Part shown: positions 24,001 through 48,000 of the stretch, piece after piece
How positions within the stretch are numbered: the first letter of the stretch is position 1
Layout of the letters: each line of letters begins with the position of its first letter
Program-made: the position numbers
Assembly: GCF_053078305.1 (NCBI RefSeq)
Contig: NZ_CP166879.1
Length of the DNA: 64,000 nt
Strand: one strand, 5' to 3'

Positions 24001-27000
24001 AGAGCCTGAATAGCTATATCTGTAGAGCCAATAAAAATCAGTACCGAATAGTTCGTGTATGCTTCTCGTACCGTCTGAACAAAACCACAGTTACAAGGTA
24101 AAAATCCATCTTCAAGCAAATTTTCGCAAGTAAAGCAGGTTATCGGCAACGTTTCTGCCAGTTGTTTTGCAAGTTGACCGCCTCTTGGGGTCAGGAAAAA
24201 CAGAGCTATAGACTCAGGTTTAACTATACTCATAGATAAAATCCATAGTATTTAAATAGTAACTCGACTTGCCGGGGGACATTCCGACAAGAATTAGCGC
24301 CATTTTAAGAATCTCTACAGCAGATTTAGTGAATCTCACCCTCTCAATTAATCGCTTGTCCAGAGTGTCAAAATCGGTGGAAAAACGAGCCAGCAATTTA
24401 AGAATTGGTCAATACATCCAGATTCTTTACGCACATTTCATGTATAATATCTCTAATATAATCATCTGTTCTCTTCAGCCTATATCGACTATCAACCTCT
24501 GATAATTCTATAAGTACTCTGACACGAACTGTAACTTCAACTTTCCACACAGAATTCCCCAGACAACATCCAACCAGCACTGTGAAAATCTTCCATACCT
24601 TAACTAACCATTCAAACCATCGATGGAACATATTCGCCACCATTAATCCCACCATGATATTGCCCATATAACTCCGACCACCACCAGACACATCACCTCC
24701 ACAGCCAATACGTAACACGCGCCCACTTTGTTGCTTCTGGCGAATAATCCGCTGAATAATATCGATAAAATTGCACACAGGTACAGTCAGTCCGGTGTCC
24801 CGGAAATAACAAAATCAACAAAATGCACCACACACCACACAAGAAATGTAATAACATACTTATTGCCACATTCAACCATCCGATAATCATCATTAATTGC
24901 TGGAAAAATGTATATGAAGATAACCAGGGAAAGTATTTCCCATATGTCTGCAACCAAACTATTGTTGAAATATCCAGTGTCCTTGACCCACGATATTCAT
25001 ATCTGCGTATGATTTTCCCATGCTCAACCAGAAATATCAGATGAGTAACTGGCTCCTCACAGTAGCCGAGGCAAACCAGACATTTTGCTATTTTGATGCG
25101 TTCCCCAAAAATATACGCCACAGGATGAACGGAACCACGGACATCCTGATGAGTTCTACAGGGATATATCGACTCTCCACATTCAGCATAAATCGCTACA
25201 CAATATGCATTAGTTAACCACCATTGGGCATGCATACCTGTATTCGCAATAAGTGTGGTAACGTAGAATCTATCTACTGTCACATCACTACTAATACAGA
25301 AGCTGTCAGTTCCTGATTTACACTGTTGTGTACGCAAACATCGTTTGACCAGTGGGCTTAAGCTGAGAATTAATGTGATTTTTTCACAGCAGTTACAGGT
25401 AACTGCCCAAACGAACGCCTGAAATCTTGTTGTCATACCCTGCTCCTTGCAGGGTGGTAGGGGTATGAAGAAGCATCTGTACAGACTTTCGGCTGTACAA
25501 TTCTGACTCAACCCACTTCCCACCGAAGTTGTTGAAAATCACCGACAGGCAGGTCTTCTGGCTTAGCTTCTTCCTCACCCGCCCTTCCCAATCTTACGAT
25601 CAGTGGTAATTACGGGGTTGTCAGCATCACAGCAGCGGGGGCTGCGGGGGATTTTCACCCCCTTCCCTGGCATAAATACGCCAAACCTGTCAGGTTATGT
25701 TATGAGCTAACTATATTAGCTCACAACAATTAAATTTTATTAAATATAAATAAAACTACTCTTATCCAAATGGATAATTAACCTCAATGCTTTATTTCAT
25801 AACTAAAATAACACTTGCATAGTTTATCCCAGGAACACTACTATTTTGTTGACCTATGACAATTTATTTCTTCTCTCTGATTTTTATTTCAGATCTAATA
25901 AAATGCCACATATTATAAAAACCGGAAATGGCAAATTATTGTCATTCATACCGATTCCGCAGGCTTGTTTTCTGCAATCTGCTGGCGAAATGCCTGCGGG
26001 GTAATCTGATAAGTCTGGCGAAACACTTTGCAGAAATAGCTGGTTTGCGAGAAACCTAAATTACGCGCAATGCTGGCGATACTCCAGTCACTATAGCAAA
26101 GCAACTCTCGAGCTCTTTCCATCCGTTGCTGATTGACCCATGAATTGAAACCTATTCCCTGATATTTCTTAAACACCCTACAGAAATAGTGTGGACTGAG
26201 ATACACATGTGAAGCAACATCTTCCAGACGCAGGTCATCAGACAAATGAGCATCAATGTAGCGCAACGCTTTTTTCATTTTACTGTCATGGGCATTCGGT
26301 GTACGATTAGAATAAATAGGCTCCTGTAATTTCTGGCTGTCTTTGATCACTACAAAACTAAGCTGTTTTTTAAGGCAGTTTTCAACTATCAGTTTCAGAA
26401 GATCGGCTGCAGCCATCACTCGCGAATAGTCCATTTCAGGAACTTTTCTGAACGCATCCAATAACTGTTGATCAGTCTGCCAGCACTCGTCAACATTGAA
26501 GATGTTAACCAACCCTGCATCACTATAGTCGCGTAAACGAACCTGCCCACACAATACAAACCCGACCAGATGACCCGCAATAACTAAAGGAACCGAAAAA
26601 TCAGTTAACCCGGCATGGCAGCGATAAATACAAGGCTGGTCCAATTTCGAAGCCTCCAGACCACCACAACGATCACTCATACGGCACCGAGCACTCAACT
26701 GTGGGTTCTGCCGCATTAACTGACAAAAGGGAGTGAAATTAAAAAACTCAGAAATTTCATCACCATGAATATTGACCACGACAACAGCCAGACTGGTAGC
26801 TCGAGCAAAATCCTGCGCGATTTTATTAATGAGATCAGAATTTAATGCACTCGCAGAAATCATGATGAACCCCAGGTCAATTATATTTATTACATTTACT
26901 TCACATTATTTATAATATATTTACACAGGAGTAAACATAAAGGACAATATCAAAAACTATCGCGTTACAGGGAGACTTTTTCTCACATCGGGAAGCAGAT

Positions 27001-45000: not shown

Positions 45001-48000
45001 GCTGACGAAATGGGTCTGGCAGAATGAATCTGAACTGCGCCCTGAAAACACACAAATACAATGCTAACTCAATGAAAAATAATGAACATCTGTACCGGGA
45101 GTGGTATGCTCCCCTGTATGGATATCTCTGCTCTCAACACCACGAATTGGCATCGAAGTTCAATCAGCTATTCGCATCCATTCGATCAATCGGGAACTGA
45201 CTTACCACTATCGTGCTGCTTTTCCCGTAACGATCCTCTATGATCTCCAGAAGGTCATTACACTGGGCGTTACTTAACTGTTCCAGCCCCAGATCGTCCA
45301 GAATTAGAACCTGTATTTTTTGCAACTGTTTCAGATGGTTCAGCCAGTTGCCATCAACACGTCCCTGAGCCAGTTGTTCCAGTAATCACCGGTTCTACAG
45401 TACCGGACGCTGTGTTTCTGTCGACATGCCTGTTCGCCCAACGCATTGGCTATCCAGCTTTTGCCGCATCCTGTCGGACCGGTTATCAGCAGGTTTTTCC
45501 TGTGGATTATGTAGTGACCGTTCAGCAACTCCCTCATCTGTTCAGCCCACAGACCTCTTGAGGCCGGATAACGCAGCCCTTCCGATGTTGCCTGGTATTT
45601 CAGGCCGGCATTTTTTCTCAACCGTGCCACACGACTGGTTTCCCTGCTCAGAAGCTCGCCATCAACCAGCAGCATCAGCCTTTCCTCGAACGATAGTTCG
45701 TCGTAAGTCTGAGGCGTTTCCCGCTGCCGTATCAGGCTCCCAGCCATCGCCGGGAGTTTCAGTTGGATCAGTTTGTTTAACAGATTATCACTCATACGGT
45801 TGTTCCTTCCGTCAGTGGTAGTAGCCCGGACCACGCAGATTTTCATGCTCTGAAGCATATGCCGGATGTTGTTCGCCCTGACGGGATAATGGAAGCTCAG
45901 GGTTCTCCCTATGGTGACGCAACAGATTGTCGATAAAGCGTCTGTCCGGTGCGTTATAGTGCAGGGCAACGTAACAGGCCTTTTCCAGCCATTCCGAACC
46001 GTATTTTTTCTGAAGTGTCAGCAGACCCAGGATTGCACGGTAAGCCAGTTCCGGATGGAGTTTTGCATTCAGCATGGGTTCAACCACCCGACCTGTGGAC
46101 GGGCCTGTACGTTTTCCCTGCTCGATAAGGCATTCCGGTGTCCATGTCCCGTGCCGCCGGTGGCGCTCAGGCATGTGAAGCGGATTGGTTGTGTATTTAT
46201 ATTCATGTGTGCTGCGCGGATGTTGCCCCCACGCAACCGGCGAAACACTCATATGAACTGACCACTCTAGGGAAGGACATATTCCTACCATTAACAGAAA
46301 ACTCACCAATAAAGACCCGGCTAAAACGACTTCCAGTGAACCATCACATAGTACCAGGTTGGATAAAGTCCATTCTCAACCGCAAACCACTGGGTCAGTT
46401 AAATATTCTGAATGACTGGTATTGTAATTATACGTAAAAATAACGCCAACAAACTGGTCAACCAATAAAAGCAAGAGGTTGATCACTTTCCTGGTAACGG
46501 GAAACGGGTAATATTTGGAACAACATGTGACCTTGTAAGCTTCCTTCTTAACCATTTGAGGTATATATGAAATATATAAAACACTACAGATGGCATATGA
46601 TTGTTCTCGTATGTTTCATTACAATCATTAACTATCTTGACCGTACAGCTCTTGGCGTTGCGGCACCAACCATAATGTCAGATTTAGGGATCTCTAAAGA
46701 ACAGTATTCCTGGATTGTAAGTGTATTCCAGCTGGCGTACACAATAGGTCAACCAATTATGGGGTTCTTTATTGATAATATCGGCCTTAAATTAGGCTTC
46801 TTTATCTGTGCAGTTATCTGGGGATTAGCCACTATGGGACACGCCCTGACTGGCTCCTGGATGGGACTGGCATTCATGCGTGGCATCATGGGCGTTAGTG
46901 AAGCTTCAGCTATTCCGGCGGGCGTAAAAACAGCTTCAACCTGGTTTCCGGCAAAAGAACGAGGCATCGCAACCGGCGTATTTAACATGGGAACATCATT
47001 TGGTGCCATGTTAGCCCCTCCTTTGATTGCATGGTGTATTATGTTCCACAGCTGGCAATTTGCTTTTATTGTAGCAGGTATACTGGCTGTAATAGCCGCA
47101 TTTATCTGGCTGATTTTCTATAAAGAACCAAAAGATGCAAAACGCCTTTCACCAGAAGAACGTTCATATATTGAAAATGGTCAGGAAAAGCATCTTAACA
47201 ATGCAAAAAAAGAAAAAACATCAGTAATCAACATCCTGAAACAAAGAAACTTTTGGGGAATCGGCATTTCTCGCTTTTTAGCTGACCCTGCATGGGGAAC
47301 AATTAACTTCTGGGTACCTGTTTTCTTTGTCGAAACACTGCATTTCAGCCTGAAAGAAATTGCCATGTTTGTATGGCTCCCATTCCTCATGGCTGATTTA
47401 GGGTGTCTTGCCAGTGGATTTGTTGCAAAATTCTTCAATGAAAGAGGAATTTCATTAATAAATTCACGACGTATTACTTTTACTATTGGTGCAATACTGA
47501 TGACGACCATTGGTCTGGTCAGCATCATAGAAAATCCCTATATTGCAGTTTTATTAATCAGCATTGGGGGATTCTCACATCAATTACTTTCTACTGTTGC
47601 TGCAACTTTAGGTGCTGACCTGTTTAAAAAGAATGAAGTCGCAACAGCTGTCGGAATGGCCGGGGCATGTGCATGGTCTGGTCAGCTGATTTTTAATTTA
47701 TTCATTGGTGCATTTGTCAGTATCATCGGCTTTGGGCCGTTCTTTATTGCACTGGCTGTATTTGACCTGATTGGTGCAGCAGCTTTATGGATACTGATAA
47801 AAGATAACAAACAGACAGATGATCACAGTCATAACAACAAACTGATTTCATCACACTAAGACGACGTCATTGTTTAATAAATTTAAACAATTATATATAA
47901 ATTTTATACTCTGAACATGAAAACCGAGTTAGCACTGGCGCATTTATTTGCGAGAAGGAGACCTCCAAAACCCTTATCGTGCCTTCATACTGCAGCCGGG

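Follow-up and report, generated by a model that had tools for sequence, protein, structure and literature searches.

The 64-kb stretch of DNA analysed here (the window) contains a 1,2-propanediol microcompartment (pdu) operon that is intact and horizontally acquired and lies on a genomic island of Escherichia coli of the Shiga-toxin type (STEC). Judging from the sequence, we regard it as quite likely that the island thereby carries a horizontally acquired Pdu metabolosome locus that is complete and probably functional. The system itself is well understood, stands in an unusual place and represents no new kind of biology; what is new is its genomic context, the initial annotation having missed the STEC island (ICE backbone, espI, iha) with its extra, second btuB. 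Otherwise the result amounts to the correct annotation of a well-known system. Our observations bear on whether the genes are intact, on their homologies, on the remnants with their limits, and on where this pdu lineage occurs.

As the initial annotation had it, and almost to the base, pocR, pduF and the 20 genes pduABCDEGHJKLMNOPQSTUVW (25946-44146) are all open and in canonical order:

25946..26863, minus strand: pocR, AraC-family activator of pdu/cob, 305 aa (NF047788 equivalog, 530 bits, cut-off 500; 82% against Salmonella PocR, full length)
27067..27849, minus strand: pduF, MIP-family propanediol facilitator, 260 aa (88% aa against Salmonella)
28379..28663, plus strand: pduA, BMC-H shell protein, 94 aa (95% against Salmonella)
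28660..29472, plus strand: pduB, tandem-BMC shell protein, 270 aa (NF011944, 469 bits; 90% against Salmonella)
29491-31155, 31166-31840 and 31855-32370, plus strand: pduC, pduD and pduE, B12-dependent diol dehydratase (98, 88 and 88% aa against Salmonella, full length)
32385-34217 and 34207-34548, plus strand: pduG and pduH, dehydratase reactivase (TIGR04491, 957 bits; Salmonella alignment)
34577-34852, plus strand: pduJ, BMC-H (profile match; Salmonella alignment)
34874-35332, plus strand: pduK, GTG start, 152 aa, BMC domain and Cys-rich tail
35332-35964, plus strand: pduL, phosphotransacylase
35961-36443, plus strand: pduM
36447-36722, plus strand: pduN, pentameric vertex protein
36734-37741, plus strand: pduO, adenosyltransferase
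37738-39126, plus strand: pduP, CoA-acylating aldehyde dehydrogenase
39137-40249, plus strand: pduQ, propanol dehydrogenase
40246-41601, plus strand: pduS, cobalamin reductase
41604-42158, plus strand: pduT
42158-42508, plus strand: pduU
42513-42953, plus strand: pduV
42950..44146, plus strand: pduW, propionate kinase, 398 aa (NF009063, 810 bits, cut-off 659)

Gene by gene, all 22 proteins align end to end with those of the annotated S. enterica cob-pdu locus (55-98% aa identity), and reciprocal alignment with Salmonella revealed no internal stop and no frameshift in any of them. All 22 genes are also full length against Citrobacter, Klebsiella and canonical E. coli orthologues. Full-length NCBIfam matches were obtained for PocR, the MIP channel (PduF), PduB, PduCDE (NF011979, 1073 bits; NF011616; NF011971), PduG, PduL, PduM, PduP, PduV and PduW, as well as for the PduO N-terminal domain and the BMC and EutN-type shell proteins. 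The overlapping start/stop coupling that had been ascribed to the operon is found at eight of the 19 junctions within pduA-W (overlaps of 1, 4 or 11 nt at A/B, G/H, K/L, L/M, O/P, Q/S, T/U and V/W), but the remaining junctions are gapped by 2-28 nt.

Each functional part of a Pdu microcompartment is represented. The shell comprises BMC-H (PduA, PduJ, PduK, PduU), tandem BMC-T (PduB, PduT) and pentameric BMC-P (PduN) proteins, recognized by NCBIfam BMC/EutM/EutS/PduB/PduT/EutN-type matches and by PF00936 and PF03319 on identical proteins. The signature enzyme, B12-dependent diol dehydratase PduCDE, is accompanied by its reactivase PduGH; the core enzymes are aldehyde dehydrogenase PduP, phosphotransacylase PduL and alcohol dehydrogenase PduQ (full-length alignments); and cofactor recycling (PduO, PduS), regulator (PocR) and facilitator (PduF) complete the set. 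By sequence inspection, the internal start of PduB' (MAEK) is conserved in pduB, Cys motifs are present in PduS, PduT and PduK, and the N-termini of PduD and PduP, which in Salmonella carry the encapsulation peptides, are conserved. PduM (55%) and PduK (68%) have diverged strongly from Salmonella; pduK was given the GTG start at 34874 since the upstream ATG of the Salmonella annotation is absent, and its BMC domain is complete.

1,2-Propanediol, which arises from fucose and rhamnose through the gut microbiota, is an established growth substrate of Salmonella in the gut (PMC5215881). By analogy with the Salmonella paradigm, from which we infer the mechanism of the window locus, including expression, microcompartment formation and dependence on external B12, the diol would enter via PduF and be sensed by PocR, which would activate pduF-pocR and the pduA-W operon. 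A shell built of PduA, PduB, PduJ, PduK, PduN, PduT and PduU, with PduM, would enclose the adenosylcobalamin-requiring PduCDE, and the propionaldehyde formed inside would be converted to propionate and ATP via PduP, PduL and PduW. PduQ would recycle NAD+, and PduGH, PduO and PduS would repair and re-adenosylate the cofactor. Since the linked cob operon is dead, corrinoid would have to be imported, and the island provides its own riboswitch-controlled BtuB receptor. The likely function of the locus, on this analogy, is B12-dependent propanediol catabolism fed by imported cobalamin. The relevant features upstream of pocR are as follows:

21378..23222, minus strand: btuB, island-borne copy, coding for an intact TonB-dependent B12 receptor of 614 aa (79% aa against K-12 BtuB)
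23288..23481, minus strand: cobalamin riboswitch of the btuB leader (Rfam RF00174, 45.5 bits)
23823..24233, minus strand: cbiG' remnant, residues 1-137 of 351 (59% aa against Salmonella CbiG)
24506..24852, minus strand: cbiB' remnant, residues 1-119 of 319, frame broken (26-43% aa, tblastn)
24852..25271, minus strand: cbiA' remnant, residues 304-459 of 459, N-terminal two thirds deleted (30% aa)
25531..25705, minus strand: cobalamin riboswitch, apparently intact, from the leader of what was the cob operon (match to the full Rfam model RF00174, 108 bits)

The cob promoter/riboswitch, about 1.7 kb of cob debris, the second riboswitch and intact btuB thus lie head to tail on the minus strand. The former cob leader riboswitch is 82% identical in nucleotide sequence to the E. 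coli cob leader, and no contiguous intact cbi genes of a de novo (cbiA-cobT) operon lie downstream of it; Salmonella CbiC, D, E, T, F, H, J, K and L found no match by tblastn in the window. The ORF that contains the cbiG' remnant (23799-24233) is still open. Scans for promoters and terminators in 23000-28500 and 43800-46700 returned sites no more numerous than in shuffled controls.

The initial annotation had an intact operon running into a possible pduX remnant, an IS66 remnant and an IS21 remnant, with cob genes lost besides, and all of this holds. The features downstream of pduW are:

44139..44266, plus strand: pduX pseudogene stub, PduX residues about 5-46, in-frame stops at 44163, 44184 and 44253
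44267..45157, plus strand: IS66-family (ISEc49-like) remnant with tnpA', tnpB and tnpC'
44365-44691, plus strand: tnpA', TAA at codon 27 (44443-44445) and frameshift near 44540
44681-45067, plus strand: tnpB, open, full-length ORF (NF033819)
45082-45147, plus strand: tnpC', first 22 codons only
45141..46229, minus strand: IS21-family (ISSso4-like) remnant, terminal repeat region 45141-45198
45182-45795, minus strand: istB', 1-bp deletion near 45386, residues 206-251 lost
45815-46228, minus strand: istA', residues 374-511 only (last 138 codons)

About 95 bp are missing at the end of pduW, comprising the last PduW codons and the conserved pduW-pduX spacer; the pduX start region is deleted as well. 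PduW has therefore lost its last nine or so ancestral codons, carries a novel tail of 4-5 aa and is 6 aa shorter than in relatives (398 versus 404 aa), with an effect that is probably nil because the PduW tail is variable among relatives. The pduX remnant beyond it is real and sits at the syntenic position, but it spans about 40 codons (44139-44266) where some 60 had been supposed. A full-length PduX ORF (about 290-300 aa) is absent downstream of pduW, and the window holds no other similarity to PduX.

PduX, a GHMP-family L-threonine kinase, has an established role in B12 synthesis, where it serves the aminopropanol arm only. Because of this role, the loss of pduX can reasonably be linked with the loss of de novo B12 synthesis, as had been proposed from its fit with the loss of cob; the stub is as heavily decayed as cbiA' and cbiB', and pduW or pduX DNA occurs in no complete E. 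coli genome, both of which support the proposal. The locus thereby offers a clear case, found in nature, of joint decay of pduX and cob in a lineage that has passed from making to importing B12.

Both insertion sequences are themselves remnants. The reported nonsense codon in tnpA is joined by a frameshift, and tnpC, thought to be missing, retains 22 codons. An IS66 arrangement of tnpA-tnpB-tnpC with terminal inverted repeats is lacking: comparison with a related element gave no convincing inverted repeats, the right end is absent, and the left end was taken as the start of homology (44267-44277 among the best E. coli matches listed), so that we classify the element as a remnant and not as a functional family member. 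In the IS21 remnant, which keeps one terminal region and not istA and istB between terminal repeats, istB is frameshifted and istA truncated as described, and istB is in addition deleted at its 3' end (about 165-177 bp). Compared with ISEc49-like and ISSso4-like elements, the window copies are truncated and nested, the IS21 element lying inside IS66 tnpC, and neither remnant can move on its own because both are without transposase genes. The debris does not extend to 46310, as had been stated; IS21 homology stops at 46229, and a match to the MFS-transporter region found in other E. coli islands sets in at 46227.

It might be supposed that pduX was functional until the IS66-family element inserted, the insertion being the inactivating event and the loss recent, for IS66 homology begins at 44267, right where pduX homology fades, and the remainder of pduX is absent. 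We consider this unlikely. The 42 kept codons include three stops and are only 52-57% (nt) and 33-38% (aa) identical to intact pduX, whereas intact pduX genes are 83-100% conserved (aa) among themselves over the same segment; the first and second codon positions agree at a rate of about 0.6. The spacer and start region have been deleted too, and the IS remnants are still 94% identical in nucleotide sequence to annotated IS66 and ISSso4 copies in E. coli, with few lesions. Since the stub is far more decayed than these remnants, this comparison of decay levels indicates, indirectly, that pduX was probably dead before the IS events and that the IS elements were probably not its killer. In the order of events that we infer, pduX would have become a pseudogene long ago, together with cob; the 3' part of the dead gene would later have been removed when an IS66-family element landed in it; an IS21-family element would next have entered IS66 tnpC; and through a deletion or recombination the IS21 element, now truncated, would have come to adjoin the MFS-transporter block.

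With both flanks pseudogenised, one by cob debris and the other by the pduX stub and IS debris, the operon could be a silent relic, in decay as cob beside it and by now unable to support the use of propanediol. The altered PduW C-terminus would agree with this, as would a 1-bp gap in pduG in one E. coli assembly, at which place no gene was called and which may reflect either faulty assembly or a true lesion (a frameshift) of that isolate. Such a relic is nonetheless quite improbable: about 18 kb with 22 uninterrupted ORFs align end to end with functional orthologues, whereas adjacent non-functional DNA has gathered stops and deletions over the same period, and pocR and the cob/pdu control region are intact. 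The dN/dS ratios against Salmonella, 0.01-0.2 in the 19 genes where they are calculable, also argue against decay, although dS is saturated and the low values sum up all of the time since the split from Salmonella and need not reflect selection in the host of today. That 44147-44266 is not pduX, and belongs to the IS66-family element as its left end or is random spacer, is hardly credible, for although the similarity to PduX is weak (tblastn E about 0.02-0.09, whole window) and no IS terminal inverted repeat could be defined, the stub is the best PduX match of the whole 64-kb window for several independent queries, lies at the syntenic place, matches the PduX N-terminus, is similar without gaps to Citrobacter pduX 5' ends (local blastn, E 3e-6 to 3e-7) and precedes the IS66 homology of the best E. 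coli matches listed.

The preferred reading, an intact operon beside long-dead cob and pduX, is best seen against related loci. Salmonella enterica pocR-pduF-pduABCDEGHJKLMNOPQSTUVWX, next to cob, shares with the window the order and orientation of the genes and the divergent pocR-pduF/pduA control region, and its cob-leader riboswitch sits at the corresponding place. In the window, by contrast, pduX is a stub of about 40 codons, cob is reduced to cbiA'/cbiB'/cbiG' debris, nucleotide identity is 61-86% per gene, GC3 is about 0.5 versus about 0.7, and the locus rides on a mobile virulence island, whereas that of Salmonella is chromosomal, between the cob operon and a DUF496 gene. (The DUF496 gene is annotated tmaR at this position in E. 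coli.) The canonical E. coli chromosomal pdu locus (cobUST-pocR-pduF-pduA..V, e.g., NZ_OW967178) belongs to the same host species and has likewise lost the cbi genes and pduX and kept the riboswitch, but it lies at the nac-cobUST/tmaR site, is 77.5% identical in nucleotide sequence, and ends at pduV, without the pduW that the window retains.

All named carriers of the pdu lineage of the window are E. coli assemblies (about 50 contigs); independent assemblies, STEC strain 453 among them, are 99.9-100% identical over 15-20 kb, and 5,426 complete E. coli genomes are without it. The species was assigned from exact protein matches and a genome announcement; an origin in Shigella, E. albertii or Citrobacter was rejected, since all protein records that match exactly carry the name E. 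coli. The nearest PduW outside the lineage is that of Citrobacter koseri (86% identical); none of the representative genomes has this PduW allele, the best matches (84%) being Citrobacter amalonaticus and an unclassified Citrobacter sp. A search for a plasmid donor gave nothing above about 81% identity, and its top "plasmid" matches are mislabelled chromosomes, one of which served as an annotated Salmonella reference. For island-borne pdu, our literature search found only the canonical E. coli pdu of ST372 (PMC9997745) and a pdu cluster of the LEE-negative STEC C165-02, which is mentioned in a single line (PMC3491183) and may or may not be the locus of the window. A distinct, pduW-bearing pdu operon is here physically linked on a mobile island to an extra B12 receptor and to the Iha and EspI colonisation factors; this linkage hints at a module for metabolic fitness that a minority of LEE-negative STEC carry, among them isolates from reindeer and other sources.

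The espI-iha-btuB module is that of LPA-type STEC islands ("locus of proteolysis activity", Schmidt et al. 2001). A bolder idea, which we hold to be improbable, is that the xenologous B12-uptake gene has in effect replaced cob behind the PocR-controlled cob promoter, so that 1,2-propanediol induces cobalamin import and not synthesis, and that cob'-btuB and pocR-pdu form a self-contained module, perhaps ancestral to LPA-type islands. If so, a fitness module for scavenging B12 and burning propanediol would move with adhesin and protease genes on a mobile STEC island, and the widespread LPA-type islands might derive from the form in the window by deletion. The espI gene, an AraC gene, iha, and btuB with its riboswitch are 98-99% identical between the window and many STEC genomes; in these, none of which has the cob'-pocR-pdu block, homology ends at 23605, about 125 bp upstream of the btuB riboswitch.

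The pocR and pduF genes on the minus strand and, divergent from them, pduABCDEGHJKLMNOPQSTUVW on the plus strand occupy 25946-44146 of the window, as determined from an ORF listing and family scans. PocR passes its equivalog model (530 bits against a cut-off of 500); near end-to-end model matches were obtained for PduB, PduC, PduD, PduE, PduG, PduL, PduM, PduP, PduV, and PduW; BMC-domain models match PduA, PduJ, PduK, PduT, and PduU; and EutN/CcmL vertex models match PduN. With L094, an annotated Salmonella enterica cob-pdu locus, as the reference for protein-by-protein alignment, all 22 proteins aligned from first to last residue, at identities ranging from 55% (PduM) to 98% (PduC) and with length differences of a few residues. 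Full-length alignment was also obtained against Citrobacter amalonaticus, S. arizonae, Klebsiella, and the canonical E. coli pdu operon. The dN/dS values relative to Salmonella are 0.01-0.2, dS being saturated. These data bear out the initial annotation, which had described the pdu genes as intact, in canonical order, and coupled by overlapping starts and stops; overlaps are present at 8 of the 19 junctions inside pduA-W, as ATGA-type or 1-nt overlaps and, between pduG and pduH, one of 11 nt. In the translations, the N-termini of PduD and PduP are conserved at the site of the Salmonella encapsulation peptides, and an internal start for PduB' and Cys motifs in PduS, PduT, and PduK are visible. 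Judged from its sequence, this is a bona fide Pdu-type microcompartment locus with all tested defining features, lacking pduX and cob. L004, the corresponding locus in assembly GCA_049331575.1, has a gap of 1 bp close to where pduG and pduH meet (approximately 34315-34368 in the window), and neither pduG nor pduH is called in that assembly; the gap could be a frameshift confined to this isolate or a fault in the assembly.

The operon is best interpreted as a pdu lineage of its own, which resides on an E. coli island and came from an enterobacterial donor that has yet to be sampled, because it is absent from complete E. coli genomes (0 of 5,426 in RefSeq), is separated by a gap in identity from other sequences, and differs in GC3. 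In a collection of 5.8 billion proteins, five clustered sequences, each of them named E. coli, are 100% identical to the query, after which identity drops to 86% for Citrobacter koseri. GC3 in the pdu genes at 28379-44146 is approximately 0.5 (0.37-0.57), compared with approximately 0.7 (0.52-0.72) in the Salmonella orthologues, implying either a lower-GC donor or a long stay in a genome of approximately 50% GC. The canonical E. coli pdu operon, which has been described (PMC9997745), is 77.5% identical to that in the window and terminates at pduV; with Salmonella genes as queries, pduW and pduX DNA was undetected in complete E. coli genomes. PduW and PocR proteins that match those of the window exactly are found on approximately 50 contigs, every one of them named E. 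coli; among these is the 5.5-Mb contig of the reindeer STEC strain 453. Over 15-20 kb the carrier loci show 99.9-100% identity to the window, and they have the same tail. A pdu cluster in a LEE-negative STEC has received a one-line mention (PMC3491183); no description of the present island-borne operon was found in the searchable literature.

The window contains no core genome content and no tRNA genes. The left part (1-23605) shows 98-99% identity to E. coli STEC islands and carries an SPI-7-type integrative conjugative element (ICE) backbone, an integrase, espI, an AraC gene, iha, and btuB with its riboswitch; to the right, MFS, IS4, and SymE genes and cdiA/cdiI modules likewise match E. coli. 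None of the 5,426 complete E. coli genomes contains the 22.6 kb between these flanks (23606-46229: cob debris, pdu, and IS debris). The ICE backbone (1-9094) shares 98% identity with E. coli CFIAFB20190157, and homology to the widespread espI-iha-btuB (LPA-type) STEC island stops at 23605/23606, a point approximately 125 bp upstream of the btuB riboswitch. The stretch to the right of the MFS gene (48394-63933) holds a sulfatase/phosphoethanolamine-transferase fragment, DUF5339, IS4 remnants, DUF4376, a SymE-like toxin, and a CdiI immunity gene, and represents a locus for contact-dependent inhibition that includes orphan modules.

Features of the island flanks and cob debris
SPI-7-type ICE parts: dnaB-PI helicase gene fragment and ParA
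3865-5127, tyrosine recombinase of the ICE backbone
5579-9094, AAA protein of 1171 aa, ICE backbone
23288-23481, cobalamin riboswitch, btuB leader (Rfam)
25531-25705, cobalamin riboswitch, cob leader, full-length (Rfam)
cbiA fragment, residues 304-459, 30% identity
cbiB fragment, residues 1-119, 26-43% identity
cbiG fragment, residues 1-137, 59% identity, ORF still open
57031-63933, minus strand, cdiA ORF of 2300 codons running beyond the window edge

A search with Salmonella Cbi proteins between the two riboswitches returned nothing beyond the three fragments, so the locus has lost de novo B12 synthesis, in agreement with the cob gene loss noted at the outset. Decay of the debris (23799-25523) is uneven, cbiG' remaining open for 144 codons at 59% and cbiA'/cbiB' standing at 26-43%; a 276-codon ORF rich in Cys, Trp, and Tyr lies open across cbiA'/cbiB' (24693-25523). 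The GC content of the debris is approximately 40% and its strands are strongly skewed (GC skew -0.25); the coding strand may therefore be A-poor, which could account for accidental long ORFs. The btuB gene is co-oriented with and downstream of dead cob (21378-25705, minus strand), placing two cobalamin riboswitches in series on one strand. With its leader it is 76.7% identical to K-12 at the nucleotide level, a divergence similar to that between island and canonical E. coli pdu, suggesting that btuB and pdu may share a foreign source.

In the Salmonella paradigm, PocR with 1,2-propanediol activates pduF and pduA-W. By analogy, the same induction would operate here, the shell would enclose PduCDE, PduP, PduQ, and PduL together with the cofactor-repair proteins PduGH, PduO, and PduS, and PduW would generate ATP from propionyl-phosphate. 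The B12 cofactor must be imported by the carrier, since the locus has no corrin synthesis and cbi genes are generally absent from E. coli; the island itself encodes an intact BtuB (614 aa, 79% identical to K-12 BtuB). It seems to us rather unlikely that btuB has taken over the role of cob downstream of the cob promoter that PocR controls, with B12 scavenging induced by propanediol as the outcome; promoter and terminator consensus scans of 23000-28500 gave sites not above shuffled controls and so weigh neither for nor against it.

The pduW stop lies at 44146. With PduX proteins extracted from relatives' loci as queries, the best match in the whole window is at 44139-44252 (PduX residues ~5-46), confirming the suspected pduX remnant, and the DNA at 44143-44232 aligns ungapped to Citrobacter pduX 5' ends. 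Over 42 codons the stub is 33-38% (amino acid) and 52-57% (nucleotide) identical to intact pduX genes, compared with 83-100% and 79-98% among the latter; it has three in-frame stops and, where intact genes read KGDNVAVAQCPASCGELIQGWILGSEKLVSCPVDWYSTV, a degraded 36-letter stretch in the same frame. A stretch of approximately 95 bp that relatives possess is absent; it covered the final pduW codons and the hairpin-like spacer conserved between pduW and pduX, and as a consequence pduW now ends inside the former pduX ribosome-binding region. In the related loci L010, L026, L012, L045, L013, and L034, a conserved intergenic element approximately 20-90 nt past the pduW stop reads AATTGCGG.AAATCATGG.AATAGC...CCATGACACTATGCGC, with arms TCATGG/CCATGA; the window has lost this element altogether. 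PduX is required solely for the aminopropanol-phosphate linker, and pduX would thus have been dispensable once cob was lost.

From 44267-44277 onward the DNA is 94% identical to an IS66-family (ISEc49-like) element; of the complete E. coli genomes, 1,338 have matches to this element. From 46227 onward the DNA corresponds, at 93.8%, to the region that holds the MFS transporter in other E. coli islands.

Features of the IS debris
44365 (start), tnpA of IS66, TAA at codon 27 and frameshift near 44540
44681-45067, tnpB of IS66, open
tnpC of IS66, ends after 22 codons
45141-46229 (homology end), IS21 ISSso4-like element, reverse orientation, terminal repeat region kept
istB of IS21, 1-bp deletion, residues 206-251 lost
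istA of IS21, residues 374-511 alone left

Both pieces are to be regarded as remnants, not functional family members. The reported tnpA nonsense codon, istB frameshift, and istA truncation are all present; tnpC, described as missing, survives in part. The pduX stub has decayed to the level of cbiA'/cbiB' whereas the IS remnants bear few lesions, which suggests that pduX was already dead before IS66 inserted. We infer that IS66 landed in dead pduX, that IS21 next inserted into tnpC, and that deletion or IS-mediated recombination then produced the present junction. In L006, the locus in E. coli assembly GCA_043765965.1, an additional 173 bp are deleted (window 44994-45166), a loss that runs from the 3' end of tnpB across tnpC' and the end of IS21; erosion of the IS debris is therefore continuing among isolates.
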